Source of the DNA: a virus
Strand: one strand, 5' to 3'
IMG/VR virus record: IMGVR_UViG_3300036940_000089
DNA: 44,831 nt
The position numbers and the translations under genes were made by a program. Every line of letters begins with the position of its first letter. The first letter of the stretch is position 1. This document shows, in pieces, positions 1 through 41,067 of the stretch. The notes under the pieces were generated by a model. That model made no database searches, was not told the origin of the DNA, and worked only from the letters and a program-made list of their open reading frames with translations.

Positions 1-127
1 TCAAGATGCTGCTTACGCTTGCCGTCTCCAGCCCACACCTGGAATTCTTTGCACTCGCGGCATGTAGACATGCAGAACGCAAACAGTTTAGCGTGGCATC
101 TATGACACGGCGGAAGGTCGTCGTGCC
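1..127. repeat. Terminal overlap: 1-127 identical to 44705-44831
   Basis: Read directly: tcaagatgctgcttacgcttgcc...cggaaggtcgtcgtgcc occurs at both window ends, so the unique length is 44704 bp. A length of exactly 127 nt looks like an assembler k-mer circularisation overlap. A genuine short DTR cannot be excluded. Confidence 0.9.
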
Positions 128-335
128 ACTTGTAAACCCTCGCCATATTGCGGTGGATAATCCTGTCTTCCTCGGCCCATAACCCTTTGATGATCGCCGC
201 CTTTTGTTCGGAGCAGGAAAACCCTTCGTGGCGCATAAGGTCGGCCATCTCTCCGGGGCCTGCGGGGTCTATCGCGCCGCTTAACACTCGTTTTATCATG
301 CGGTAGTGGTGCTTGCGCTGGTTGTCCGATGCCAT
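1..335 (-). CDS. Hypothetical Cys/His-rich protein, 115 aa, spanning the circular junction (complement join 44692..44704,1..335)
   Basis: ATG at 335-333 follows AAGGAGGGG. The frame is open to base 1 (MASDNQRKHHYRMIKRV...CHRCHAKLFAFCMSTCRECKEFQVWAGDGKRKQHL) and finishes DKAG-TAA at 44694-44692. It is absent from the ORF track because it runs off the window edge. Confidence 0.6.
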   Translation of the reverse strand, partial: MASDNQRKHHYRMIKRVLSGAIDPAGPGEMADLMRHEGFSCSEQKAAIIKGLWAEEDRIIHRNMARVYKWHDDLPPCHRCHAKLFAFCMSTCRECKEFQVWAGDGKRKQHL

Positions 336-345
336 GTGCCCCTCC

Positions 346-2592
346 TTATGCAATAAATGACATTTGCTCTGCGGTGTCGGCGTCGGCTTCTTTGAGATTC
401 TTGACTGCCTGCCGCCAGTAACTTTCTTTAAGCTCGGCTCCGACAAACCTCCTACCCATTTTCAAGGACTGATAGCCCTCAGATCCGATGCCGGTAAACG
501 GGGAGAAAACCAAGTCGCCCGGGTTGGTCCACAATTGCAGTGCCCTCTCGATCACGTCCAGTTGCAGCGGGCATATATGCCGTTCGTCCTTGTCTTCTCT
601 GGCGCTGCGTCTCTGCAGAGTGTTCGACGGGTTAATATCCATCCAGACCGGCGAGGCATACCGCTGCCACACGTCTATACTCAGGTTTTTGGTTTGCTGA
701 AATGTCGATTGATCCCCGGCAAAGTGGGTCAATTCTCCCGTAACAGGCTCTGGATTTTCCCCTGGCTTCCTCATTACGACTAAATAATCCGGGACGCCTT
801 GGCGACTCATGCAACTATCTTTTTTAAGTTGTTTGTGGAGTAATCCAAGTGCCTTTGTGCGTTGCATGGCCGTTACCGGGTCCTTCCAAATAACCACTTC
901 GCTGTGATAAATCCACCCGGCGTCCTGAAATGTTTTAATCAGCTGGCCGCGAAAATCCTTTATGCCGATCACCCCGTCACGCGCCTTGGACGTCGGCAGA
1001 TTCATACAGTGAAAGGCGCACAGTCTGCCGGGCTTGGTGATACGTAACAGTTCCGGCACTAGAAAACAGAAGTGGTCGGCAAACTCTTGGTCATTCTTGC
1101 AATTCCCCATGTCCCTGTCGCTTGCCGAGTAGGTGTAGAGCGAGGAAAACGGCGGCGAAAAGATGGAAAAATCAATACTGTCGTCGTTAATCTCGCGGGC
1201 CACGTCCACGCAGTCCCCAAGAAATACTTTCCAGTTTTCTGACTCAGCCACGTCGCGGACATAATCGACCTTTTGACGGACGGTGCCGTGGATATCATTG
1301 CCGTTCAAATCGGCCATGTGTTTAACCATTTCCGAAGCCATCAACTCCGTGTCAGCCTCTTTGCGTTCAATGTTTTTCACAACCGCCCCTTCCGTTTCTG
1401 CGGTCACGACATGGACTGTGACCTTGTTTTTCTGCCCGAACCGCCAGCACCTTCTAACAGCTTGATAAAACTGCTCATAAGAGTCCGACAAGCCTAGGAA
1501 TATCATGGTGTTACAGTGCTGCCAGTTCATACCGAACCCGGCGATACTTGGTTTGCTGACCAAAACCCGGAACCTGCCGTCAGGAAAGCCAAGTAAAGAC
1601 TGCTCCTTATGTTCCGGTTTGTCGGCCCCTTTAACCTCCACAGCACCGTCAATCAGGCTTTTTGCTGCGGCTGATTCGTCATTAAGGTTGCACCACACCA
1701 AGCAGGGCCCGTCCGTTTCGTTGGCGATTTGTGCGGCGAGTTTGGCGCGGTCGTCAATCGTCGCTTTGCGTTCCTGCTGCCGTTCTTGCAACGTCAAGGC
1801 TTCGACCGGGAACAGAAAGCCATCCGGAGCCTCATCCTTTTTGACGACGTGGTGCACAATTTCCATGTCCGGCAGCACAAACCCGCCATCGTCATAGCCC
1901 AGATCGGACGGCTTTCGGACCATCACCGCCCAGGAAGAAACCCATCGCCAGAAGTCGTCTGAAGCATGGCCCTTGAGTCGCCATTTTTGCGTTTCCCCAC
2001 CGTCATGGACAAAAAACATGGAGAGCATTTCAGTGCGGCTCATAGCCCCTAAGAACTCCGCATGGTTGCCTAATTCCATGTGGTCATTCGGTGCAGGGGT
2101 CGCTGTGCAAGCCAGACGGAAACTCGTGTTCCTGAACGACTCGATAATTTGGTTGCGGACTTTCCCCGTATAACTTTTAAGAATTGACGATTCATCCAGC
2201 ACCACCCCGACAAACTCGCTCGGATCGAACTTGCTCAACATTTCATAGTTGGTTATAGTGACCCCCTGCCCAACCTGTTCTTGACTGCGGCAGTAACGCA
2301 CCTCCACGCCAAACTTCTCACCTTCCCGGGCGGTTTGGCTGGATACGGCCAGAGGGGCCAGTATTAGTACATTGCCCCCCGTTTCTTGATGGATGACGCG
2401 GGACCATTCAAGCTGCATGGCGGTCTTGCCCATGCCGCAATCGGCAAACAAGGCTGCTCGGCCTCGTTTCAGGGCCCAACTCACAATGTCCTGCTGGAAG
2501 TCGAAAAGCATATCATTTAGCGGTGGCAGGCTAGATAGACCTGTTGGCCGATCAACAACGGACTTTTTGTGTAGGAAATTTTGATAGTTCAC
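346..2592 (-). CDS. SNF2/SF2 helicase fused to a beta-class N6A/N4C DNA methyltransferase
   Basis: Helicase motifs: ADCGMGKTAMQ (Walker A), VLDESS (DExx), CTATPAPN, QAVRRCWRFGQ (motif VI). In the MTase part, motif IV SPPF (IFSPPFSS) precedes motif I FSPFTGIGSEG. Start moved to GTG 2592, which has GGAGGTGGAG just upstream; the track start 2694 would overlap ssb. Confidence 0.85.
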   Translation of the reverse strand: MNYQNFLHKKSVVDRPTGLSSLPPLNDMLFDFQQDIVSWALKRGRAALFADCGMGKTAMQLEWSRVIHQETGGNVLILAPLAVSSQTAREGEKFGVEVRYCRSQEQVGQGVTITNYEMLSKFDPSEFVGVVLDESSILKSYTGKVRNQIIESFRNTSFRLACTATPAPNDHMELGNHAEFLGAMSRTEMLSMFFVHDGGETQKWRLKGHASDDFWRWVSSWAVMVRKPSDLGYDDGGFVLPDMEIVHHVVKKDEAPDGFLFPVEALTLQERQQERKATIDDRAKLAAQIANETDGPCLVWCNLNDESAAAKSLIDGAVEVKGADKPEHKEQSLLGFPDGRFRVLVSKPSIAGFGMNWQHCNTMIFLGLSDSYEQFYQAVRRCWRFGQKNKVTVHVVTAETEGAVVKNIERKEADTELMASEMVKHMADLNGNDIHGTVRQKVDYVRDVAESENWKVFLGDCVDVAREINDDSIDFSIFSPPFSSLYTYSASDRDMGNCKNDQEFADHFCFLVPELLRITKPGRLCAFHCMNLPTSKARDGVIGIKDFRGQLIKTFQDAGWIYHSEVVIWKDPVTAMQRTKALGLLHKQLKKDSCMSRQGVPDYLVVMRKPGENPEPVTGELTHFAGDQSTFQQTKNLSIDVWQRYASPVWMDINPSNTLQRRSAREDKDERHICPLQLDVIERALQLWTNPGDLVFSPFTGIGSEGYQSLKMGRRFVGAELKESYWRQAVKNLKEADADTAEQMSFIA

Positions 2593-2608
2593 TTCTCCAC
2601 CTCCTATC

Positions 2609-3070
2609 TCAAAACGGGATAGAGTCGGAATCATCAAACGGCGGCTCCTGATACCCACCGCCTGTTCCGCTTCCGTATTCGCTGCGTGAGGCACTTTCTT
2701 GTCGCTGCCCTTGCCATTGGTTGCGCTGGCCGTTGTCGTCGCTTGCGCGGCCTAGCATCTGCATTTGGTCGGCTACTATCTCGGTGGTGTAGCGCTTGTT
2801 ACCGTCACGGTCTTCATAGCTGCGAGTTTGGATTTTGCCCTCGATATACACTTGGCGGCCCTTGCTCAGATACTTGCCGCAGATTTCTGCGATTTGCCGC
2901 CACGCGACGATGTTGTGCCACTCGGTTTTCTCCTGGCTGTTGCCGTCACGGTCTTTGTAGCGCTCCGTGGTAGCAAGCGAGAAATTGCAAACCGCTGTCC
3001 CTGATGCGGTGTAGCGAAGTTCGGGGTCTTTGCCTAAATTGCCAACGAGGATACATTTGTTTACCGCCAT
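2609..3070 (-). CDS. ssb: Single-stranded DNA-binding protein
   Basis: Classic OB-fold SSB N-terminus ([27 protein letters not shown]...EWHNIVAW), a Gly/Gln-rich linker and an acidic C-terminal tip DDSDSIPF. Confidence 0.95.
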
Positions 3071-3105
3071 GTTATGTCTCCAAAGTTAAAGTAAATTGTT
3101 AGATG

Positions 3106-3513
3106 TTATGCAGCTTCGATAATGATTTCAGTTCGCGGCCTGTCACCGTAAATCTTCCGCGCTTCCAACTCGAACACCTGGGAATCATCGCGCCAAGCCA
3201 CCCCGTTAAGACAGTCCTTGGCAAACTTCACAAGATTGTCCAAGTCCGGCTTTTTCGTATGCTGTTGCGGGGCAGAAGGTTTCAGTTTTGCCGCATTCTT
3301 GCCCGTTCCAAAGTGGCCTTTAGGTCGCGGCATGGCAAATAGCATTTTCACTTTCAGCGGCCCTTGAAAAAGGTCTTTAACTTGCCCCTTTGCGAGCAAC
3401 AACCATTTGCCTTCCTCGGTTTCCTGATCGTTGTATGTCTGCACAAATTGACCTCTCCGTGCAAAACGAGGCCTTTTCTTCGCTATAGGTGCGCCTTCAA
3501 TAACAATGTTCAT
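3106..3513 (-). CDS. rusA: RusA-family Holliday junction resolvase
   Basis: 135 aa with the RusA signature KPDLDNLVKFAKDCLNGVAWRDDSQV and an N-terminal KKRPRF segment. Confidence 0.85.
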   Translation of the reverse strand: MNIVIEGAPIAKKRPRFARRGQFVQTYNDQETEEGKWLLLAKGQVKDLFQGPLKVKMLFAMPRPKGHFGTGKNAAKLKPSAPQQHTKKPDLDNLVKFAKDCLNGVAWRDDSQVFELEARKIYGDRPRTEIIIEAA

Positions 3514-3686
3514 GCCGCCTCCTTAAACACTTCCTTGACTCGCTGCCACATGCGCTTGTATTTTCCAAGGCGCGTTTGTAGCTCCCCGATAATTTGCCGA
3601 CACCGCGCAAGCTCAGCGTCTTTCGCGTCGATCATCATGCGCTGCTCGGATACCGCTATTTCCAGGGCCGTGCATCTGTCACACAT
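3510..3686 (-). CDS. Small hypothetical protein (58 aa, coiled-coil-like)
   Basis: ATG 3686 follows AAGGAGC. Sequence MCDRCTALEIAVSEQRMMIDAKDAELARCRQIIGELQTRLGKYKRMWQRVKEVFKEAA. Its TGA overlaps the rusA ATG (ATGA). Below the ORF-track size cutoff. Confidence 0.5.
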   Translation of the reverse strand: MCDRCTALEIAVSEQRMMIDAKDAELARCRQIIGELQTRLGKYKRMWQRVKEVFKEAA

Positions 3687-3737
3687 ATGCGCTCCTTTAA
3701 TTAATTTTCCATGTTTGACGGTCTAATATCTGGATAC

Positions 3738-3753
3738 GTGGAAAATTTTCCAC
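3738..3753. promoter_or_regulatory. 16-bp perfect palindrome GTGGAAAATTTTCCAC (candidate dimeric protein-binding site)
   Basis: Read directly in the 87-nt spacer between two early genes. A half-site-like copy AATTTTCCAT recurs at 3703-3712. Confidence 0.45.
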
Positions 3754-3773
3754 CTATCACTCTGTTGTATTGC

Positions 3774-3995
3774 TTAGTCGATCTCGGTGATAGTTATTTC
3801 CACTCTCCGGCCATGCACTGATTCTGTCGTGTATCCGCAGGCGTTTATTAGTTCGCCAATGGTCATCACATCAAAATCGCTACTTACAAAGCATGTCCTT
3901 ACGCCGCTACTTGTTTGAAGAGGGTTAAAGTGTCCTTCAATCTCTGATTGGAGCTTCTCTTGGCAGTCAGAAATATAAACGGTTTCTTCCACCAT
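3774..3995 (-). CDS. Hypothetical protein (73 aa)
   Basis: ATG 3995 preceded by AAAAGGAGGAA; clean ORF. Confidence 0.6.
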   Translation of the reverse strand: MVEETVYISDCQEKLQSEIEGHFNPLQTSSGVRTCFVSSDFDVMTIGELINACGYTTESVHGRRVEITITEID

Positions 3996-4102
3996 TTCCT
4001 CCTTTTATGACCCAGCGCAATACAACCAGCACCTAAAGCGGATGGAATACGCTGGCTGCTAAATTCTCAAACGGTCACCCGCCACCGCTTAGGCTTATTC
4101 CG

Positions 4103-4390
4103 TTAGAGCCCTAGCTTCCGGATGTTTTGGAGCACTATCCGTAGGGTCGATTTTACCGGCTTGTCCTTAAATGTGGTGATAGGCCACCCGCGCTTATCCT
4201 TCTTCCACCAGGGCAGCATTTGGCGTTTGGTGCGCTCCAGTTCTTTTTGCACTGTCAGGCGCGGGGCCGTCACAGCCTCCTTCAACTCCATAGCTTGCCG
4301 ATGAGTTACGTTAATTTTGTAAAATGATAGCCAAGCATCTACAGCGGTTTGCTCTGGCCATGTGCTGCCGCAACATTGCTGTGTATCCAT
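4103..4390 (-). CDS. Hypothetical protein (95 aa)
   Basis: The track ORF starts at 4402. The second ATG (4390, MDTQQCC...) has GGAGGA 4 nt upstream, while the first has no SD. Confidence 0.55.
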   Translation of the reverse strand: MDTQQCCGSTWPEQTAVDAWLSFYKINVTHRQAMELKEAVTAPRLTVQKELERTKRQMLPWWKKDKRGWPITTFKDKPVKSTLRIVLQNIRKLGL

Positions 4391-4476
4391 ATTTTCCTCC
4401 ATGCTCTAACAAACGCATCGACCCTCGCCTTCTGCTGGACTCGCTACGCTCGCCGGTCATGCTTGATCGTTATGTG

Positions 4477-4650
4477 TCATACCTTTCGGACATACTCGCC
4501 ACTCGGAAGTTGTATATAACCGCCAACAGGCGCTTTCTCGTAGGCTTCGCACGTCCTGCATATGTTTGCAGGCTGCGAATAATGGATGTTTGGGTTACTG
4601 TCATCCTCGCAAAACTCGCGACCGCACTTTTTACAAACACATTTACGCAT
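4477..4650 (-). CDS. Small zinc-ribbon-like protein (57 aa)
   Basis: MRKCVCKKCGREFCEDD...ICRTCEAYEK contains two CxxC pairs. ATG 4650 has AGGTGG 8 nt upstream. Confidence 0.55.
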   Translation of the reverse strand: MRKCVCKKCGREFCEDDSNPNIHYSQPANICRTCEAYEKAPVGGYIQLPSGEYVRKV

Positions 4651-4688
4651 ATATTTGCCACCTAAATTCTGCACATAACCAGCCAGTC

Positions 4689-4759
4689 CAGCGGACGGAA
4701 GACCAGCGGCGGTTCTCGTTTAGGTCATCGCTGCGCCGTTATCGGCACACCGTCCGCTG
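4689..4759. repeat. 71-nt intergenic element bounded by a 10-bp inverted repeat (CAGCGGACGG...CCGTCCGCTG)
   Basis: Read directly. It has the same length and termini as the element at 5323-5393 and contains the small hairpin GCCG-ttat-CGGC. Confidence 0.7.
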
Positions 4760-8922: not shown

Positions 8923-9591
8923 TTATGCTGCGTGTCTCTTGGCTTCCAACGCATTAACCGCCTTGCTGTAATTCTGAGAAGGGATGTCGGCCAGAGTTTT
9001 TACGTCAAGCCACTCGCAAAACCTCTCTTTGTCGGCTCCTGTTTCGGCTATCAGGGCTTCTATGTCGGCAAGCTGGTTGCGGGTAATAAACCCGTTTGGC
9101 CTCGACCCTTTCGGCAGCGCCCATGCTGGAAGTTGCGGCGGATCCCACTTCATTGCGTCAAGGTTTTTCTTCTGATCGCGCCCTGCGTAATTCTTGCCAC
9201 CCGCGTGGATATTCGCCCACCCGCTTTCAAGGTTGTACAGATATCGCCCTACGCCCCATTGCACAGCCGCCCGTTTCATCGCACCGGATATCCCGCCCTT
9301 GGTGGACTCAATTTGGCTTTCCTGCGCCCCGTCCCACTTGGTGATCCACTCGTTATCGATCCGCAGGGACAGGCCACACAGAAATGCGCTGTCGATGTGG
9401 CAAAATTCGTTCTTCCAGTTCTCCGGCCCCATGACTTCATCAAGCCGCTGCATAATGGCGCGGTTGGTGACGTAGGCTAAGACCTTCGCCCACTGTCTGT
9501 TGTTCTTTTGCCCGCGTTCCGCAATGCGCCATTCGATGTCTTCCGCAGGGAAAGGAGCCGCTAGAGCTTCCCAAATCTCCTTTTTATTCAT
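8923..9591 (-). CDS. Rad52/Sak-family single-strand annealing protein
   Basis: FPAEDIEWR...AYVTNRAIMQRLDEVMGPENW...STKGGISGAMKRAAVQWGVGRYLY is the Rad52/22 (phage Sak) signature. Start set at ATG 9591 (MNKKEIWEAL). Confidence 0.8.
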   Translation of the reverse strand: MNKKEIWEALAAPFPAEDIEWRIAERGQKNNRQWAKVLAYVTNRAIMQRLDEVMGPENWKNEFCHIDSAFLCGLSLRIDNEWITKWDGAQESQIESTKGGISGAMKRAAVQWGVGRYLYNLESGWANIHAGGKNYAGRDQKKNLDAMKWDPPQLPAWALPKGSRPNGFITRNQLADIEALIAETGADKERFCEWLDVKTLADIPSQNYSKAVNALEAKRHAA

Positions 9592-9907
9592 TTCCTCTCT
9601 CCCATCCCCAGAGCGCACCGGCTGCCGGTTCCTCCCGGCACGCACGGCACGTCAGGTTTAACCCATGCTCCGATTGATAGCCCTGACCGCAGGTAGGACA
9701 TACGCTGGTGTATTCGCGATAAACCGGCTCCGGCAGTTCTGGTTCAAACGGTTCGCAGACCTCGTGAGGGCAAACGCGGCAGTCCCCGTCGCACTCTTCG
9801 GATTCCGGGGCCTCGCAGTTGCGCTTACGCTCTGCCGCCATTCTCTGTGCGTATGAGATTTTGGCTATGTGGATTTCTCTCCAAAATTGTTTTTCTACCG
9901 CGTTCAT
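9584..9907 (-). CDS. Hypothetical Cys-rich protein (107 aa)
   Basis: ATG 9907 follows GGAGGCAACC. Contains CDGDCRVCPHEVC and CPTCG...CRAC clusters. Confidence 0.55.
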   Translation of the reverse strand: MNAVEKQFWREIHIAKISYAQRMAAERKRNCEAPESEECDGDCRVCPHEVCEPFEPELPEPVYREYTSVCPTCGQGYQSEHGLNLTCRACREEPAAGALWGWERGNE

Positions 9908-11084: not shown

Positions 11085-11468
11085 ATGGAAAAAATCATTG
11101 GGAAAAGAATACTTGAGGTGAGGAAGAGAATTTCCGACCTCAATCAATCGGATTTAGGCGCTCTCTTTGGCGTGAAAAACGTCGCCGTCTCACAATGGGA
11201 GAACGGCGAAACGATGCCAAGCGTTGAGGTGTTAGAAAAGGTCGCCGACATGGCTGGCGAGTCGCTGGACTGGCTTTTCGGGAGAGAGGACAAAACCATT
11301 TCAAACGAAGAGCGCAGGCTTTTGAGGTTTTTCCGAGGAACAAGCGAAGAAGGACAAGAAATAGTGCTGGAGACCGTAGAGGAAGGTGTTAAAGGGGTCG
11401 TCTGCCATCTAAGACAAAAAAGCAAGCCGCCCTCACGCAATGGTCAGAGCGGCTCCGTGAGATATTAG
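11085..11468 (+). CDS. XRE/Cro-CI-type HTH transcriptional repressor (127 aa, no S24 peptidase domain)
   Basis: LNQSDLGALFGVKNVAVSQWENGETMPSVEVLEKVADMAGESLDWLF is a canonical HTH_3 domain. It is one of only four plus-strand genes. Confidence 0.85.
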   Translation: MEKIIGKRILEVRKRISDLNQSDLGALFGVKNVAVSQWENGETMPSVEVLEKVADMAGESLDWLFGREDKTISNEERRLLRFFRGTSEEGQEIVLETVEEGVKGVVCHLRQKSKPPSRNGQSGSVRY

Positions 11469-11865: not shown

Positions 11866-11931
11866 AATTAACTCCTCTGGGGGTATTTTTTGATGCCAGA
11901 AAGACGCGGAGACCTGCTGCGTTGACATCCT

Positions 11932-11956
11932 CCCCGCCGTGAACGACGGGGTTTTA
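11932..11956 (+). terminator. Plus-sense hairpin CCCCGCCG-tgaa-CGACGGGG followed by TTTTA
   Basis: Read directly. It could stop repressor-strand read-through before it runs antisense into the fibre gene. One mismatch in the stem. Confidence 0.4.
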
Positions 11957-12090
11957 CGGAACAAAGGATAAAAAAATACATCCAAAAACAGGAACGACCA
12001 CAAACCTAAACCGCGCTATCCATCCCCACCCAAACTTTGAGGTTCTGGATGGGGAATTCCGCGCATTTCGTTAAAATTTGTGCGGACGCA

Positions 12091-24300: not shown

Positions 24301-24466
24301 TTTGAGACACCCCTAGCTTAGATGATAAATTGTAAAGCTCTGCCGCCTCATCGGGGCTACGGTCGGCCTGCTTATACGCCTGTTGCGGGGTTGGCGGCTT
24401 TTCGACCGTTTCCCAATTTTCGTGCTTCTTCTCGGACCATGTGCCGTCTGCGCGCAAAATTTCCAT
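18335..24466 (-). CDS. Giant 2043-aa virion-associated (ejection/polyvalent-type) protein with a zincin HExxH motif
   Basis: Single uninterrupted ORF covering 14% of the genome. HELGH at 21890-21904 (aa 855-859) is followed by EQFARGFEAYL. Gly/Ala-rich hydrophobic stretch at aa 228-270 and hydrophobic segments near the C-terminus. It sits between the internal virion proteins and the tail fibre. No SD before the ATG. Confidence 0.7.
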   Translation of the reverse strand: MEILRADGTWSEKKHENWETVEKPPTPQQAYKQADRSPDEAAELYNLSSKLGVSQKAVKDNLDVARRAANMPDFDKLRDRAPVLVGQTRDAWFMSLAQDDLENLATIEEKTSALKKQQQEAVNAEAVKNIEGLSSSLVPGFVKGTDTYREFISGQAMDRGGVLWEQRRRLILQGKDLPPDQLEYLAKLDAASNYETTDTGLSSFIPAASELVGQMFESMKSPKVMERGLTGAITGAGAGAVAATPTGEIAAPITAPAGALAGAGIGLRVGYFEHAHDVEAGQAFREFRTLQDGEGNQIDDKTAAVAAELVGVANATLETVGFSALAKVIPGLRKVMSNGVKGLVLSNPTIRKAFFDFAKNYAMAWTGEVTTEMAQELTNIVVSGVLQDQGIVQTIKDPATMEQLQQVAAKVGKGMAVLGMAGGGVTLAGDIQAAHKAKTEAEVRKNKMVDVASSAEASRLKERSPEAFAEFMSRVGRKNGVEKIYLQSDRIIETLVDEQGMTQQEVTTWAEQYGVSRTELITALQTGGAVEMDFGKVAAGVGTDQAMTLFQNDLSISAEETTVNAAEADVQAESAANVRIKELYDEEQRRLISPDMVDQIEADLKAQLEDAGVKGDNASYSIMPIIARANVLAKLTGIEAAEHLKRFGITIQRQNFDEFAELHQLGQVQFQQSKKEYVYRFKGETLNEDEWSQWADDQDAISHFGDTAWRVPISRLMPVAEFQELARDAYLADEEKGRLPASVEELSVDDFVAALDPADIVDSADMWDWNRGQFDEWIYENVIEPNEIVGIKTSNGAMLFDNSVAEKVGEDHLYQGGGQGTFFRTDTAPRGAILTGDGKTLITLFESANLSTFLHELGHFFLSDLQHVAETYGVQVEEWKAIKEWLGVDGELTTEQHEQFARGFEAYLREGEAPATGLIGAFRQFKRWLVNIYKTADALQVEINDDIRRVFDRLVATDEEIKQAREMAAQIAVFDEAFLKEAGATPEEVAEYKKTVDGSESEAAEKKDKQRTAKLDERLKEWRKQAKAEVEEVPVYKAMTMLVERGGIDRSSVKRLFGDVKLPNVKGLFKKDGLDIEHAAIEAGYESAREFVKELSKSKTKTQWIEQRVAQLDIEHDAELTTEEAIRTAKARKQMELESKWLARKEAQGRAALTRKALRVWADQTTGGQKVGDAIKVNKLLVASRRLRQQVIKAVKAQDWTKAFDLNEKARLNESLIAAHYRANEAYRKTQARWKRAVKADVAYEYRQQINQLLLRNQMVSRRLNVDEGTPQLGEFLSGITGNLDDITALGVPVFSDWLHNDTRATSEMTWGEIQELDDLLKFLVGRGREVKKALLSDEKTAIADLAAEAVQEAAKMKGKKLAKHDSLRRKLQDVKESYFAGLRIPLWLFRQMDGWANISKKGKAGVNERKLWTPLAKGLDNFYAATEEMGGKITPHLEQLITSWKEHGKEVDTTVPVPDCFKPDNRHWTFEHIIMVALNMGNADNLQRLSAGFTVDGTPMTVEQFAELTSILSEKDWAAVQGIWDSINDLYPQVDKVHLKLNHFRLKKVDAKPITVQTKDGVAVELRGGYFPIRYDGSLSLLAGMWDEMSDLSSRQEAVLQTPSAKSGFTKQRTATGSKLPIKLSMSVLSEHLSDTLRYIHLAPTVRDVDRVTQNKTYQAEAIRVLGPELYKMVRPSLKHMIRPDGMVGTRWEKTIQWAMKRSSAFYMGWNIVTAMKNFGGFFQAQARVGLPTMLRGYGQFIKGPKEAFDNIMKLSPYMRSRYMAYDNDFRRQMMKFKPEKKFFGMSRGDIMAVGYAGIVAADSVSFLPTWLGSYRDGLDKFDGDVEQAVDYADTKIKEIQPSGNALDLSHLQRSTEGLSAIGRLFTPFFGFAGNFGNLQRATWGAWRAGKMSLHEFLFHNFLTGVAQPLVPIIFLAMLRTGEPPEPEEIAKEVIGSSVQGLPIVRDLVEYAMGRGYGDIVSTPALELVNIVGRTGRSTANLLTDPTADDARKVMFGLAEAASFASGVPVSQVYRRMKKGYDQIEEGNGTAANIFLPKRKGE

Positions 24467-24562
24467 TTTTTTATTGCCTGCCGCCGTGATGGTGGTATAT
24501 TTTAAAAACAGTTATTAACAAACAGCTATAAAGGAGGTTTTATGAGATGGGCCTGTCTGATT

Positions 24563-24760
24563 TTGACCTCCTCCCCTCCCTAAAGGAAGGGGATTCCCGG
24601 CATCGCTGTCGGGAGTTTTCTGCTTCAATGAGAGTTGCCAATGTCTCAAACAGACACCGGGCTTACACTCTCTCCACAGACTGTTGCGGCAAGCCCTGCC
24701 GCCAATATGTTCCTGGCCGCGTTTATATCGCGGTCATGGTTGGTTTCGCACTCCGGACAC
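24563..24760 (-). ncRNA. Predicted TnpB omega-RNA (reRNA) scaffold overlapping the tnpB 3' end and the right end of the IS
   Basis: Position follows the known TnpB rule. The minus sense contains CCCGacagcgatgCCGGG and the 8-bp hairpin CCCCTTCC-ttta-GGGAGGGG. The exact 5' and 3' ends were not determined. Confidence 0.4.
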
Positions 24761-25779
24761 GTCCACTGTCTTTTGGAAAGAGGCATGGAGGTTTCTACGT
24801 GGCCGCAGTTCGAGCAGCGCTTGCTCGATGGATACCATCTGTCGATACCTATCAGATCGCGCCCATACCACAGGGCTTTGTACTCAAGCTGTCTTAGAAA
24901 TTCCGACCAGCTTGCGTCTGAAATGGATTTGGACAGATGGCGGTTTTTCTGCATGTTCTTCACCGACAGTGTTTCAACCGCGATAGCTTGGTTCTCGCGT
25001 ATCAGCCTGGTTGAAAGTTTATGCAGAAAATCCCTGCGCGTGTCTGCGATCTTTGCATGTAAACGCGCTACGTTCTTACGTGCCTTGGCGCGGTTGTTTG
25101 AACCTTTTTGTTTCTTGCTCAGGCGGCGCTGCAAAACACCCAGGCGCTTTTCGTATTTGCGCAGGGTCCTGGGTGCTGCGACCTTTTCACCGTTCGACAG
25201 CACCGCAAAATGGCTCAAACCAAGGTCAATACCGACCTTGTTATCTGCAGCAGGTTTTGCTGCTACGCAGTCATCGCACAGAAGCGATACAAAGTACCTG
25301 CCTGCAGGGTCTTTAGAAACAGTGCAGGTTGTCACCTTGGCCGCTTTGGGGATGGTACGTGACCAGCGGATGTTTAGCGGTTCCTTCATCTTTGCCAGAA
25401 AAAGCGCCTTCCCGTCCCAGCGGAACGCGCTGGCAGCGTAGGTTGCGGACTGCCTACCATGCTTGGACTTGAAGGATGGATACTGCGCTCTTTTAGCAAA
25501 GAAGTTGTTAAATGCTGTGTGCAGATGCCGCAACGCCTGTTGGATCGGAACAGATGAAACGTCACCGAGCCATGCGTACTGCGGATCTTTCTTGAGTGCA
25601 GTGAGTAAAGAGGATGTTTCGTGATATCCGATACGCTCCTGGCGCTTAAACCATGCGTCAGTGCGCACGCGCAGCATGTAGTTATATACAAAGCGAGCAC
25701 ACCCGAACGTCTGTGCAAGAACCTTCTCTTGCTCAGGCGTTGGGTAGAATCGAAACTTATATGCTCGCTTGATATCCAT
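24646..25779 (-). CDS. tnpB: TnpB RNA-guided nuclease (IS605 OrfB)
   Basis: N-terminal YKFRFYPTPEQ. RuvC triad contexts VGIDLGLS, IAVETLSV and NHDRDINAARNI. Zinc finger CSNCGH...CPECE. Confidence 0.95.
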   Translation of the reverse strand: MDIKRAYKFRFYPTPEQEKVLAQTFGCARFVYNYMLRVRTDAWFKRQERIGYHETSSLLTALKKDPQYAWLGDVSSVPIQQALRHLHTAFNNFFAKRAQYPSFKSKHGRQSATYAASAFRWDGKALFLAKMKEPLNIRWSRTIPKAAKVTTCTVSKDPAGRYFVSLLCDDCVAAKPAADNKVGIDLGLSHFAVLSNGEKVAAPRTLRKYEKRLGVLQRRLSKKQKGSNNRAKARKNVARLHAKIADTRRDFLHKLSTRLIRENQAIAVETLSVKNMQKNRHLSKSISDASWSEFLRQLEYKALWYGRDLIGIDRWYPSSKRCSNCGHVETSMPLSKRQWTCPECETNHDRDINAARNILAAGLAATVCGESVSPVSV

Positions 25780-26119
25780 GGTTTACATAGTATGATATTT
25801 ATGCGTAAAATACAAGTGGTTGCTTGCGCAAACCCGAAAAACCATGACTGCATTCGCAGTCAGCGCCTTATATCCCGGCCCTGAAGGACCGGGTTTTACG
25901 GCGCGTGTCGATAAACGCCGTGCTATTTGTTTTCCCAATTAGCCTTATCATCCACGGGAAAGATATAGATTTGGCCTTCGCGGTAGCTGCTCTCATCATT
26001 GGCAACACCATGGCACTGACGGAGTTTGACCCTGTGGTGCCACTTAAGTGCGTGCGGCTTTACTTCCATCGTAAAAAACTTGAAGAGGAGGCTAGAATTG
26101 CCGAACTCAAAAAAACATC

Positions 26120-27841
26120 CTAACGGGCTTTCTCGCGCATCTTCTGCCCATCAACGGTCATATAGTAATGGTACCCACCGCGCCGCCCAAGATAAAAGGC
26201 GCTCTGGTCTTCGTCCCAAATGGCATCCGGCCATTCCCCGGCTTTACGGATTTTACTTACTTCGCGTTGGATGTATGTTTGGCGCTGTTCACGCTTATAC
26301 CTAGCCTTGTCTGCTTCTGGCGTTGTCTTGATAACCGCCTGCTCGCCTGCCGTGTAGTCTTCTAAGTCAAGCGTCCCAAAATCCCACGTTGCTTTTTCTA
26401 CGTCTGGCTGTGCGAGCTCAGTGCCCATTTTCACGATTTCGTTATATGACGGGTTGCGCTTGTGGACGCTACGGAATTCTAAAACGTCCTGATACAAGAC
26501 CTTCATAAACCGCGCCTTGTCCTGGTCGTCTTTGAATATATCGCGAAGATCTCCCTTCAGTGTTTCCACCGCCTTACCTAGGCTCGGAACATCGCGCACG
26601 ATCTCCACTTCGGCCATAAGGCTTTTAGCGTCGGATGGGTCAAGTTGCCCATCGTTCGCCGCTCGCATTAAATCAAGCTCTTGCCATTCGCCAGCCAATA
26701 CTTTCTCGTAAGCAGAAAACCAGAGGTTAAGCCGGTCGACCTTATCTGCGCCTTTACCGCTGGCTGAACGTTTAAGCCAGCTTTTCACCTGAAGCTTTTG
26801 GTTCGGATCGAGCCCCACGTCTCTATCAATAGCTGCAATAGATATATTTTCACCGGCGTTGAAGATGCGGTTGTAATACTGTTCCAGCCGTTCGAACTGT
26901 TTTTCATTGTCGATTTTATCCTGCACTGCGTGTTTGTGCGTCAGGTTTGAAACAACCGCGCCCCTTACCTCGTCGTCTTTAATGTCTTGGGCCAGCTCAA
27001 GTTGCAATGCTGGCGTTTCGGCCATAGATTCAATGCGGTCGGTTTCCTTGTCGGCCTCAAACGGAACACGCTCCTTTTCGGCCAATTCCGTAAGCGCCAC
27101 AAGGTCAGAGGGGGCAAGAATTTTCTTCACCTTGTCGTCCGCTAAAAGCTCCATGGCTCGGGTTGGATCCTCGTGCAACAAGGTGTTTAGTGCCGTCTTG
27201 GTGATTTCCGCTGCTGCGGACCGCTTGCCGCTTTTTACCGCTCGGGCGTCCCCGGTCGGTCCGACGATGAACTCTATCTGCTCATCCATATTTGCAATAG
27301 CAGTGTTGATTTCTTCTATCCCACCGCCTGCCTGCAAGTCGGAAGCAAGTTGTTTTTCTGCAACATCCTGCGTGTCTTGCAGGGTCTGTCTGCGCCATTC
27401 CTGAATTTGCGTAGATTCCCAAGCCGCGAAGTTGCGCCGGTATGAGTTCTCTACATATCCAAGGTGCTCAATGGCCTTGTCGCGGTATCTCTTATTGACA
27501 CCGTGCTTTGATAACAGCTCGTCTTTCCACTTGCGCGAGTTGTCGTTATAGTTCTGATAGACCCCTTTAAATCCGGTCTGCTCGTTCGCAAGTGCGGCCT
27601 GTCCTTGACGTTCCTGTTTAGTCTTTTCCCACTCTTCAAGGGATCTCTGCTGGAACTCGTTTTTTGCCGCGAGGATGGCCGTGCGCTGTTCGCGTTCTTC
27701 CTTCTGCTGCGCGAACTGCATCAACGTGTTGCCGAAGCTTTCCACGGTTCCGGCGACGGCTTCCCCTGCGTCGTTCCGCTTGTATGCGCCCACCGAAGAA
27801 GGAAGGGCGACGCTGCTTTCATAGGTTGGTATTCTAGGCAC
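26120..27841 (-). CDS. Internal virion / structural protein (573 aa), function unknown
   Basis: Located in the virion module. GTG 27841 lies 7 nt after AGGAGG. Helical, charged sequence with no catalytic motif seen. Confidence 0.55.
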   Translation of the reverse strand: MPRIPTYESSVALPSSVGAYKRNDAGEAVAGTVESFGNTLMQFAQQKEEREQRTAILAAKNEFQQRSLEEWEKTKQERQGQAALANEQTGFKGVYQNYNDNSRKWKDELLSKHGVNKRYRDKAIEHLGYVENSYRRNFAAWESTQIQEWRRQTLQDTQDVAEKQLASDLQAGGGIEEINTAIANMDEQIEFIVGPTGDARAVKSGKRSAAAEITKTALNTLLHEDPTRAMELLADDKVKKILAPSDLVALTELAEKERVPFEADKETDRIESMAETPALQLELAQDIKDDEVRGAVVSNLTHKHAVQDKIDNEKQFERLEQYYNRIFNAGENISIAAIDRDVGLDPNQKLQVKSWLKRSASGKGADKVDRLNLWFSAYEKVLAGEWQELDLMRAANDGQLDPSDAKSLMAEVEIVRDVPSLGKAVETLKGDLRDIFKDDQDKARFMKVLYQDVLEFRSVHKRNPSYNEIVKMGTELAQPDVEKATWDFGTLDLEDYTAGEQAVIKTTPEADKARYKREQRQTYIQREVSKIRKAGEWPDAIWDEDQSAFYLGRRGGYHYYMTVDGQKMREKAR

Positions 27842-40809: not shown

Positions 40810-40979
40810 GCGTCCTCCATTGACTACTCCCCACGCCTGAAGGCGGGGGATTCCTAATTCGCTGAGGATTGCGTTCCGTACTGGCTACGTCTTAAATCCT
40901 CTCCAAAGGCTTAAAATTCCGCATGCCCTGCGGTATTTAGTTCTTTTGTCAACGATCTTGGTTTTCGATCATTGGTAAT

Positions 40980-41007
40980 ATTATACTACATTTCACTGAG
41001 ATGACAA
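40980..41007 (-). promoter_or_regulatory. Near-consensus promoter TTGTCA-16 nt-TATAAT (minus strand)
   Basis: The minus sense reads ctcTTGTCAtctcagtgaaatgtagTATAATatt. It is followed by a leader of about 165 nt with several hairpins before the ATG at 40809. Confidence 0.6.
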
Positions 41008-41067
41008 GAGAAAAACCGCATCCTTATATCCACACGGATAAATCCGGTGGTCTTACGGATGCATCGA

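Follow-up and report, generated by a model that had tools for sequence, protein, structure and literature searches.

A 1,348-bp segment of the viral genome held as IMG/VR record IMGVR_UViG_3300036940_000089 (44,831 nucleotides, analysed as a whole and called here the window) is best explained, with a probability of about 80%, as a recently inserted non-autonomous IS200/IS605-family element of the tnpB-only (IS1341-like) type. A preliminary description, made from the letters of the window, had recognised a TnpB-only element with TnpA-type ends, and this identification was confirmed by insertion-free (empty) sites in related phages, by Pfam matches and by IS608-like termini. As such, the element is of a well-known kind, a textbook tnpB-only insertion. 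The locus is also an unusually complete natural test case for RNA-guided TnpB homing or competition between phages, natural sequences providing the exact ends, the target-adjacent motif (TAM) TTAT, the guide, an uncut sibling target, a candidate cognate TnpA and a phage recombination system. In addition, its annotation was corrected: a conserved small gene on the opposite strand is inactivated by the insertion and the giant virion gene next to it is undisturbed. Coordinates of all features are collected in Table 1.

Since searches of GenBank phages by megablast of the locus and by tblastn of the neighbouring 573-aa protein gave no match, relatives were drawn from IMG/VR, in which five contigs encode that protein at 84-90% identity (L001-L229 label contigs compared with the window and X labels denote sequencing runs, X1 being an oil-field metagenome). 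In four of these five (L001, L002, L003 and L005) the sequence corresponding to position 25911 directly abuts that of 24562, with nothing duplicated or lost, and the bounds of the element are thereby fixed. The same 1,348-bp skip (24562 to 25911) was found in metagenome contigs of two further runs, X3 and X4. The empty site reads ...GTTTAT/AATCAGACAGG... (also written ...TTAT/AATCAG..., and at full length ...GGCGTTTAT/AATCAGACAGGCCCATCT..., the slash marking the junction). Thus, alignment to insertion-free phages, recommended in the preliminary description, defined both the ends and the TAM, and the four relatives were found to carry an empty site rather than the same sequence lacking hairpin-defined ends. 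The insertion lies 3' of a conserved tetranucleotide; neither a target-site duplication nor terminal inverted repeats are present, and TTAT precedes the left end at all five independent readable junctions (the window, L006, L145, L197 and L102). Both junctions of the insertion-bearing form are spanned by X1 contigs at ~360-400x with zero mismatches, and the same arrangement was present on an 81.6-kb JGI contig (L207), which also crosses both junctions, and on three further contigs; the insertion is therefore not an assembly artefact.

Analysis of the termini revealed a left hairpin, CCCGGTCC-ttca-GGGCCGGG, and a right hairpin, CCCCTTCC-ttta-GGGAGGGG, each with a T.G pair at stem position 6. 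Between the ends defined by the empty sites and the hairpins lie 17 nt on the left side and 10 nt on the right, and the right end reads ...GGAGGTCAA at 24563. The last four nucleotides of the 17-nt CGACACGCGCCGTAAAA form a putative left guide, AAAA (25897..25894), and the right cleavage site TCAA closes AGGAGGTCAA, 10 nt 3' of the right hairpin. Because the ends lie at set distances from the hairpins, and the hairpins are kept in copies of 85% identity, they are not a product of chance. These results bore out the two hairpins of identical design described earlier, and the right end at about 24563 followed by the guide aatcagacaggcccatct, placed by analogy with IS608, proved exact when read from the empty sites. 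The element had been located at 24480-25915; its existence stood and these coordinates did not, the left end lying 5 nt further inside.

The only gene inside the element, tnpB, had been described as full-length with an intact RuvC D/E/D triad and zinc finger, and this was upheld by comparison with ISDra2. The protein matches three Pfam families, all above their cut-offs (HTH_OrfB_IS605, 1.5e-21; OrfB_IS605, RuvC, 2.2e-32; Cas12f1-like_TNB, zinc ribbon, 3e-26), and aligns end to end with the ISDra2 TnpB structures 8H1J, 8EXA and 8BF8 (E=5e-74). Residues D185, E269 and D351 align with the ISDra2 catalytic residues D191, E278 and D361, and the CxxC...CxxC zinc finger is present as CSNC...CPEC. 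Comparison with three copies ~91% identical in protein gave a synonymous divergence (dS) of ~0.60-0.63 and a nonsynonymous divergence (dN) of ~0.06, with dN/dS ~0.10. As judged from these alignments, the catalytic residues of TnpB are intact and the protein is under purifying selection. A TnpB homologue was found in 422 of 50,697 phage records, so that phage-borne TnpB is common and not unusual. A consensus promoter scan of the minus strand of the left end gave no tnpB promoter; TTGTAT-17-TACTAT (3/6 and 4/6), picked by eye, was too weak to be claimed as one.

The 3' region of tnpB was analysed as a predicted omega-RNA. The 117 nt from 24679 to 24563 fold with a minimum free energy of -47.2 kcal/mol (z = -3.05). 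Rfam gave sub-threshold matches on the minus strand, to HgcC (24550..24674, 26.8 bits, E=0.0015) and to sot0042 (24572..24625, 21.8 bits), and for this reason a dedicated covariance model (R1) was built from ten homologous 3' regions of similar length, aligned by sequence only. This set replaced a 23-sequence MAFFT alignment, in which variable inner hairpins were misaligned and the consensus fold was poor. In the resulting structure of 35 pairs, 79.9% of cells are paired, against 42-56% in controls with slid partners, and 18 of the 35 modelled pairs show compensatory change on both sides. With R1 the same RNA was detected at 30 other loci, directly 3' of tnpB in each; cyanobacteria, gammaproteobacteria and actinobacteria are among their sources. 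These results supported the view that the region behaves as the predicted omega-RNA, a conserved structured RNA; the covariance modelling called for in the preliminary description thus returned a structured, covarying RNA at the place expected.

The predicted 20-nt guide of this RNA, AATCAGACAGGCCCATCTCA, is antisense to the start codon and codons 1-7 of a 77-aa gene. Its sequence occurs once in the window, where it is preceded by TCAA and not by TTAT. In the insertion-free relatives TTAT is followed directly by the guide sequence, and the match is perfect for at least 40 nt past the right end.

The element had been placed in the spacer between two essential virion genes. This had to be revised: it sits inside the conserved 77-aa gene, on the opposite strand, which itself lies between two internal-virion-protein genes of this podovirus-like phage. 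The insertion splits the small gene between codons 7 and 8, separating its Shine-Dalgarno sequence and ATG from the remainder; a hybrid open reading frame (ORF) of 72 aa, opened by a GTG (25905) inside the left end, has no Shine-Dalgarno sequence. In L001, L002, L003 and L005 the small gene is intact (77 aa), begins with AAGGAGG-TTTT-ATG (window 24531..24544, plus strand), and at its end overlaps the stop codon of the 573-aa gene. At this position the fifth relative, L004, carries a diverged 81-aa homologue that agrees in Shine-Dalgarno sequence and in layout, namely two hydrophobic segments followed by RLYxRRKxLEExARI. Database homologues are 99% (24 contigs), 77% and 62% identical, and searches of Pfam and PHROG gave no family match. 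A promoter-like TTGCCT-16-TATATT (24474..24501, plus strand) precedes the small gene and is divergent from the giant gene. By analogy, this arrangement suggests an independently expressed, moron-like gene inside the virion module; a role in superinfection exclusion may be imagined by analogy only.

Translation signals of the giant gene had been suspected of being displaced by the element. Comparison with the four insertion-free relatives spoke against this: the leader, from the right end of the element to the ATG at 24466, is identical in all of them (96/96 nt), so that the weak Shine-Dalgarno sequence GGCAGG, ~10 nt upstream of the start, is native. The insertion-bearing phage reaches ~360-400x in X1, and the insertion is accordingly compatible with phage growth.

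Copies of the element were found elsewhere. That of L006 is 99.85% identical and has other flanks, which belong to a Mu-like baseplate region containing GP46 and Baseplate_J; in L183 the copy is cut by the contig start, its assembled last 123 nt are 100% identical, and it adjoins a Mu GpP-like gene. Three copies ~85% identical (L102, L145 and L197) have different flanks again. In run X3 the depth over the element was 76x vs ~5x for the insertion-free phage, which indicated that the element is multicopy elsewhere in that community. No copy was found in E. coli genomes. The closest genomic TnpB copies lie in Geobacteraceae metagenome-assembled genomes (92% over a partial ORF, and 68%) and are a weak pointer to a host, not a host assignment. 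In the RNA-type wastewater runs X21, X23 and X26, depths of 1,700-4,200 over 24562..24615 (the right-end hairpin region) were accompanied by many different flanks, so that the 35-nt right-end core is common to a large and abundant set of related elements.

As had been claimed, no tnpA was detected in the window: Y1_Tnp was not among the 25 best-ranked of the 35 Pfam families matched by its 101 ORFs of at least 100 aa, and tblastn with the TnpA of L006 gave no window match below E=0.17. Since tnpB is the only gene inside the element and no Y1_Tnp was found in the window, the element is non-autonomous. In L006, a Y1 TnpA gene (135 aa, PF01797, E=2.6e-44) begins 45 nt beyond the right end of the near-identical copy, and TnpAs 60-66% identical to it were found by tblastn in many metagenome loci having the same 35-nt right-end core. 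Mobilisation in trans by a TnpA from elsewhere is therefore plausible. The L006 region as a whole (1..486, 1835..4699) contains the element, the 45 nt, tnpA and, at the contig end, an inverted left-end-like sequence, from which no simple structure could be derived.

Based on these features, a mechanism of homing between phages may be outlined. The element would enter single-stranded phage DNA by means of a TnpA that the host or another replicon provides in trans. TnpB would bind the omega-RNA, whose guide would be the 16-20 nt adjoining the right end of the element (AATCAGACAGGCCCATCT...). The insertion-bearing genome would be immune to its own guide, because TCAA and not TTAT precedes the guide sequence, and the insertion-free genome of a sibling in the same cell would be cut at TTAT plus the perfect target. 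Repair from the insertion-bearing genome would then copy the element in, through the near-identical flanks and the phage Rad52-family protein, RusA, NinB and SSB, and cutting without repair would remove a competitor; the disrupted small gene would be dispensable for lytic growth. Tentatively, and as a rather doubtful proposal, the TnpB/omega-RNA element may be regarded as an RNA-guided gene drive between coinfecting phages ("non-restorative homing") that cuts TTAT+AATCAGACAGGCCCATCT and is copied by phage Rad52-type recombination; a 247-bp mini element in the same genome (see below) could supply a second omega-RNA-like guide in trans, and loss of the small gene might alter superinfection.

As far as can be read from sequence, homing between sibling phages is possible. 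The insertion is present in the window, L207 and X1 and absent from L001, L002, L003, L005, X3 and X4, all of which offer TTAT with a guide match of 100%. Identity of the flanks to those of insertion-free alleles is 96-100%, extending for at least 600 bp on the left side and for 600 to 2,400 bp on the right. Homing by the TnpB of IS605-family elements in bacteria, and the processing of their omega-RNAs, are established (PMC10690162, PMC10278001); a 2026 review (PMC13565253) counts homing into coinfecting phages among theoretical possibilities, and the literature searched offers speculation and no demonstration of phage TnpB homing.

Several observations weigh against such an active role. The match of the guide to the empty site is automatic for any recent IS605-family insertion and is not evidence of selection. 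A single clonal background accounts for every insertion-bearing allele found (13 kb of L207 are 100% identical), and hence there is no population sign of drive, of spread to diverged genomes or of co-conversion tracts. The insertion-free phage of runs X3 and X4 shares these communities with element copies elsewhere that have differing guides, and it stays insertion-free. The tnpB gene has no Shine-Dalgarno sequence, and the left end holds only a weak promoter-like site. Finally, the sole signal in RNA runs is a 218-nt contig over 24569..24786, which was assigned to the element of a relative because it is only ~92% identical, and DNA carry-over in the libraries is possible.

A passive passenger would leave much the same traces, namely a single clonal background, an insertion-free phage that persists in element-rich communities and a tnpB without obvious strong expression signals. 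Under that explanation, a single hop in a TnpA-bearing host would have been followed by hitch-hiking on a successful clone, with TnpB and omega-RNA idle during infection and no drive; TnpB genes are, moreover, common in phage records without a demonstrated phage function. We consider this quite possible, though short of probable, since the TnpB is intact and under strong purifying selection across its family, the omega-RNA is structurally conserved, and the element is co-oriented within the late virion operon, which would make read-through transcription likely.

The selected trait could instead be the loss of the 77-aa membrane protein, or an altered transcription into the giant gene, the element having acted merely as a mutagen. 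The clean severing of the small gene after codon 7, with loss of its Shine-Dalgarno sequence and ATG, would fit this idea, as would the ~400x depth of the mutant clone in one metagenome and the resemblance of the small gene to an independently expressed moron (a promoter-like sequence and a strong Shine-Dalgarno sequence). It is nevertheless unlikely: the small protein has no Pfam or PHROG match that would suggest a function, its conservation in 24 contigs argues that it is usually useful, and no second independent knockout was seen. Far less likely still is a domesticated TnpB, either a nuclease-dead, guide-directed repressor of TldR type or a fixed phage weapon that is no longer mobile. Its position just upstream of a major virion gene and a guide antisense to the 5' end of the small gene could be taken in that sense, but the intact D/E/D triad, the two intact transposon ends, the near-identical copies at other sites and the lack of the element in most relatives, that is, a mobile and polymorphic distribution, contradicted such a role. 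A chimeric joining of a bacterial insertion sequence to the phage, conceivable in that the multicopy element breaks assemblies in some runs (X3), was ruled out, with hardly any residual probability, by the independent contigs across both junctions described above and by junctions that follow the TTAT/TCAA rule to the base.

The recently inserted tnpB-only element is not the only one of its family in this genome, which holds three tiers of IS605-derived elements (1,348, 247 and 46 bp), all on the same strand. The mini element of 247 bp lacks tnpB and has the form TTAT/CGATGCATCCGTAAGA-hairpin...GGAAT-hairpin-GTAGTCAA/, with a near-consensus promoter (TTGTCA-16-TATAAT) and an omega-RNA-like scaffold without one stem. 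It sits in a terminator T-tract, just ahead of the next gene's Shine-Dalgarno sequence; the relative L209 lacks it, and family members occur in other flanks in L220 and L221. The micro element of 46 bp lies within a 184-bp window-specific segment (11893..12076) that is absent from L210 and L217 and holds another hairpin, GGAAT-CCCCATCC...GGGTGGGG; its 5' half is the same as the left end of the L221 mini element. Micro elements of 48-49 bp were also observed in the IMG/VR relatives L222-L229, at two further sites, after TTAT at terminator-like T-tracts, with two copies on one of these contigs. Adjoining the micro-element region is one of the few plus-strand genes, which codes for an HTH_3 (Cro/CI-type) protein that may be a regulatory switch.

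The phage itself is podovirus-like, with a T7-type head-tail connector, a tail protein (phrog_376) and an internal virion protein (phrog_418), and it encodes RusA, NinB, SSB and, at 8923..9645, a Rad52-family (Rad52_Rad22) annealing protein. Between virion-module genes lies a free-standing HNH_3 endonuclease gene, whose product would give this genome a further candidate homing nuclease, in this case a protein-based one. A fusion of an SNF2-type helicase with a DNA methylase domain is encoded near the start of the window. Within the 573-aa gene, a patch (window 26700..27500) is 70-82% identical to L001-L005, against 96-100% around it, and the giant gene of L001 and L003 (18335..23400 compared) is ~100% identical over its first 2.4 kb and 81% overall; this sharp mosaicism indicated recombination breakpoints near the insertion site.

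Table 1. Position and strand of the element, its parts and other features of the window (a slash marks an element boundary).
Feature	Position	Strand	Remarks
Complete non-autonomous IS200/IS605-family element, 1,348 bp	24563..25910	minus	left end, tnpB, predicted omega-RNA, right end; no tnpA
TTAT: target tetranucleotide, left cleavage site and TAM	25911..25914	minus	flanks left end, outside element
Left end	25780..25910	minus	17 nt CGACACGCGCCGTAAAA, imperfect palindrome 25893..25874, second small hairpin 25862..25845 (terminator-like in scan)
tnpB, 377 aa	24646..25779	minus	RuvC D185/E269/D351 and zinc finger C320/C323...C340/C343 region intact
Predicted omega-RNA scaffold, 117 nt modelled	24563..24679	minus	overlaps last 11 tnpB codons; stops at right-end boundary
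Right-end core	24563..24596	minus	right guide GAAT 24596..24593, palindrome 24592..24573, then AGGAGGTCAA 24572..24563
Predicted omega-RNA guide, 20 nt	24543..24562	minus	AATCAGACAGGCCCATCTCA, directly 3' of right end
Small gene, severed 5' end, codons 1-7 (MRWACLI)	24542..24562	plus	Shine-Dalgarno AAGGAGG 24531..24537
Small gene, severed 3' part, codons 8-77	25911..26123	plus	same 77-aa membrane-like gene
Giant virion (internal or ejection-type) protein gene, 2,043 aa	18335..24466	minus	downstream of element; phrog_9880, LPD22
tnpB-less mini element, 247 bp	40820..41066	minus	R1 37.3 bits, E ~6.5e-7; omega-RNA-like scaffold 40820..40908
Single-hairpin micro element, 46 bp	11922..11967	minus	TTAT/CCTTTGTTCCGTAAAA-CCCCGTCGttcaCGGCGGGG-AGGATGTCAA; R1 19.2 bits
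HNH_3 endonuclease gene, 222 aa	15660..16328	minus	free-standing
Helicase-methylase fusion gene, 782 aa	346..2694	minus	Helicase_C, SNF2-rel_dom; N6/N4 DNA methylase domain
HTH_3 protein gene	11085..11468	plus	

Among known systems, the ends are most readily compared with those of IS608 of Helicobacter pylori, which undergoes single-strand transposition by a Y1 TnpA. In IS608 (PMC3201880, PMC5934647) the left cleavage site TTAC lies 19 nt 5' of the left hairpin, with the left guide AAAG immediately 5' of the hairpin foot, and the right guide GAAT goes with TCAA, the right cleavage site, which follows the right hairpin at a distance of 10 nt. The window element shares with it the subterminal imperfect palindromes, the insertion 3' of a tetranucleotide with no duplication, the right guide GAAT, the TCAA and the 10-nt right spacing. 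It differs from IS608 by a matched change, AAAG with TTAC being replaced by AAAA with TTAT (G to A, C to T), as would be expected if the pairing rule between guide and cleavage site reported in the same two papers applied here. Further differences are the absence of tnpA, a left spacing of 17 nt and not 19, the T.G mismatch in the hairpins and a phage replicon.

The protein resembles the ISDra2 TnpB of Deinococcus radiodurans in its whole-length alignment, triad and zinc finger, and in an omega-RNA (also called reRNA) at the 3' end of tnpB that extends as far as the right-end boundary and has a flank-derived guide. ISDra2 TnpB has 408 aa vs 377 aa in the window protein. The TAM of ISDra2 is TTGAT; that of the window element is TTAT. 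IS1341-type tnpB-only elements with sotRNA or HgcC RNAs (Rfam RF02656, RF00062) likewise have no gene other than tnpB and a sense-overlapping structured RNA at its 3' end, and the terminal hairpin together with the GAGGAGGUCA motif aligns to both Rfam models; these families were built from archaeal sequences, and the window scores 26.8 and 21.8 bits, far short of the gathering thresholds of 50 and 88. Full-length TnpBs 57-60% identical to that of the window occur in phage genomes as GipA of Gifsy-1 and in the Klebsiella phage vB_Kpn_ZCKp20p, neither with a demonstrated nuclease role in phage; unlike these, the window locus offers an empty site, a TAM, both ends and insertion-free siblings.

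The two smaller elements are similar to the gene-less IS200/IS605 derivatives known as palindrome-associated transposable elements (PATEs), in that the 247-bp and 46-bp elements keep the end features and TTAT and have no protein gene. They differ from PATEs in the omega-RNA-like scaffold and near-consensus promoter retained by the former and in the single hybrid hairpin that constitutes the latter. TldR-type nuclease-dead repressors are set apart from the window TnpB by its intact triad and by ends that are both intact and mobile. Lastly, T-even phages have free-standing homing endonucleases (SegF and others), and these, like "transposon non-restorative homing" (PMC13565253), share with the mechanism proposed here the cut of a nuclease-free sibling allele and repair by copying, and the self allele would in both cases be protected by an insertion-disrupted site. 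Recognition by the window element would differ from that of the T-even enzymes in being guided by RNA, through the TAM and 16-20 nt, rather than by protein.

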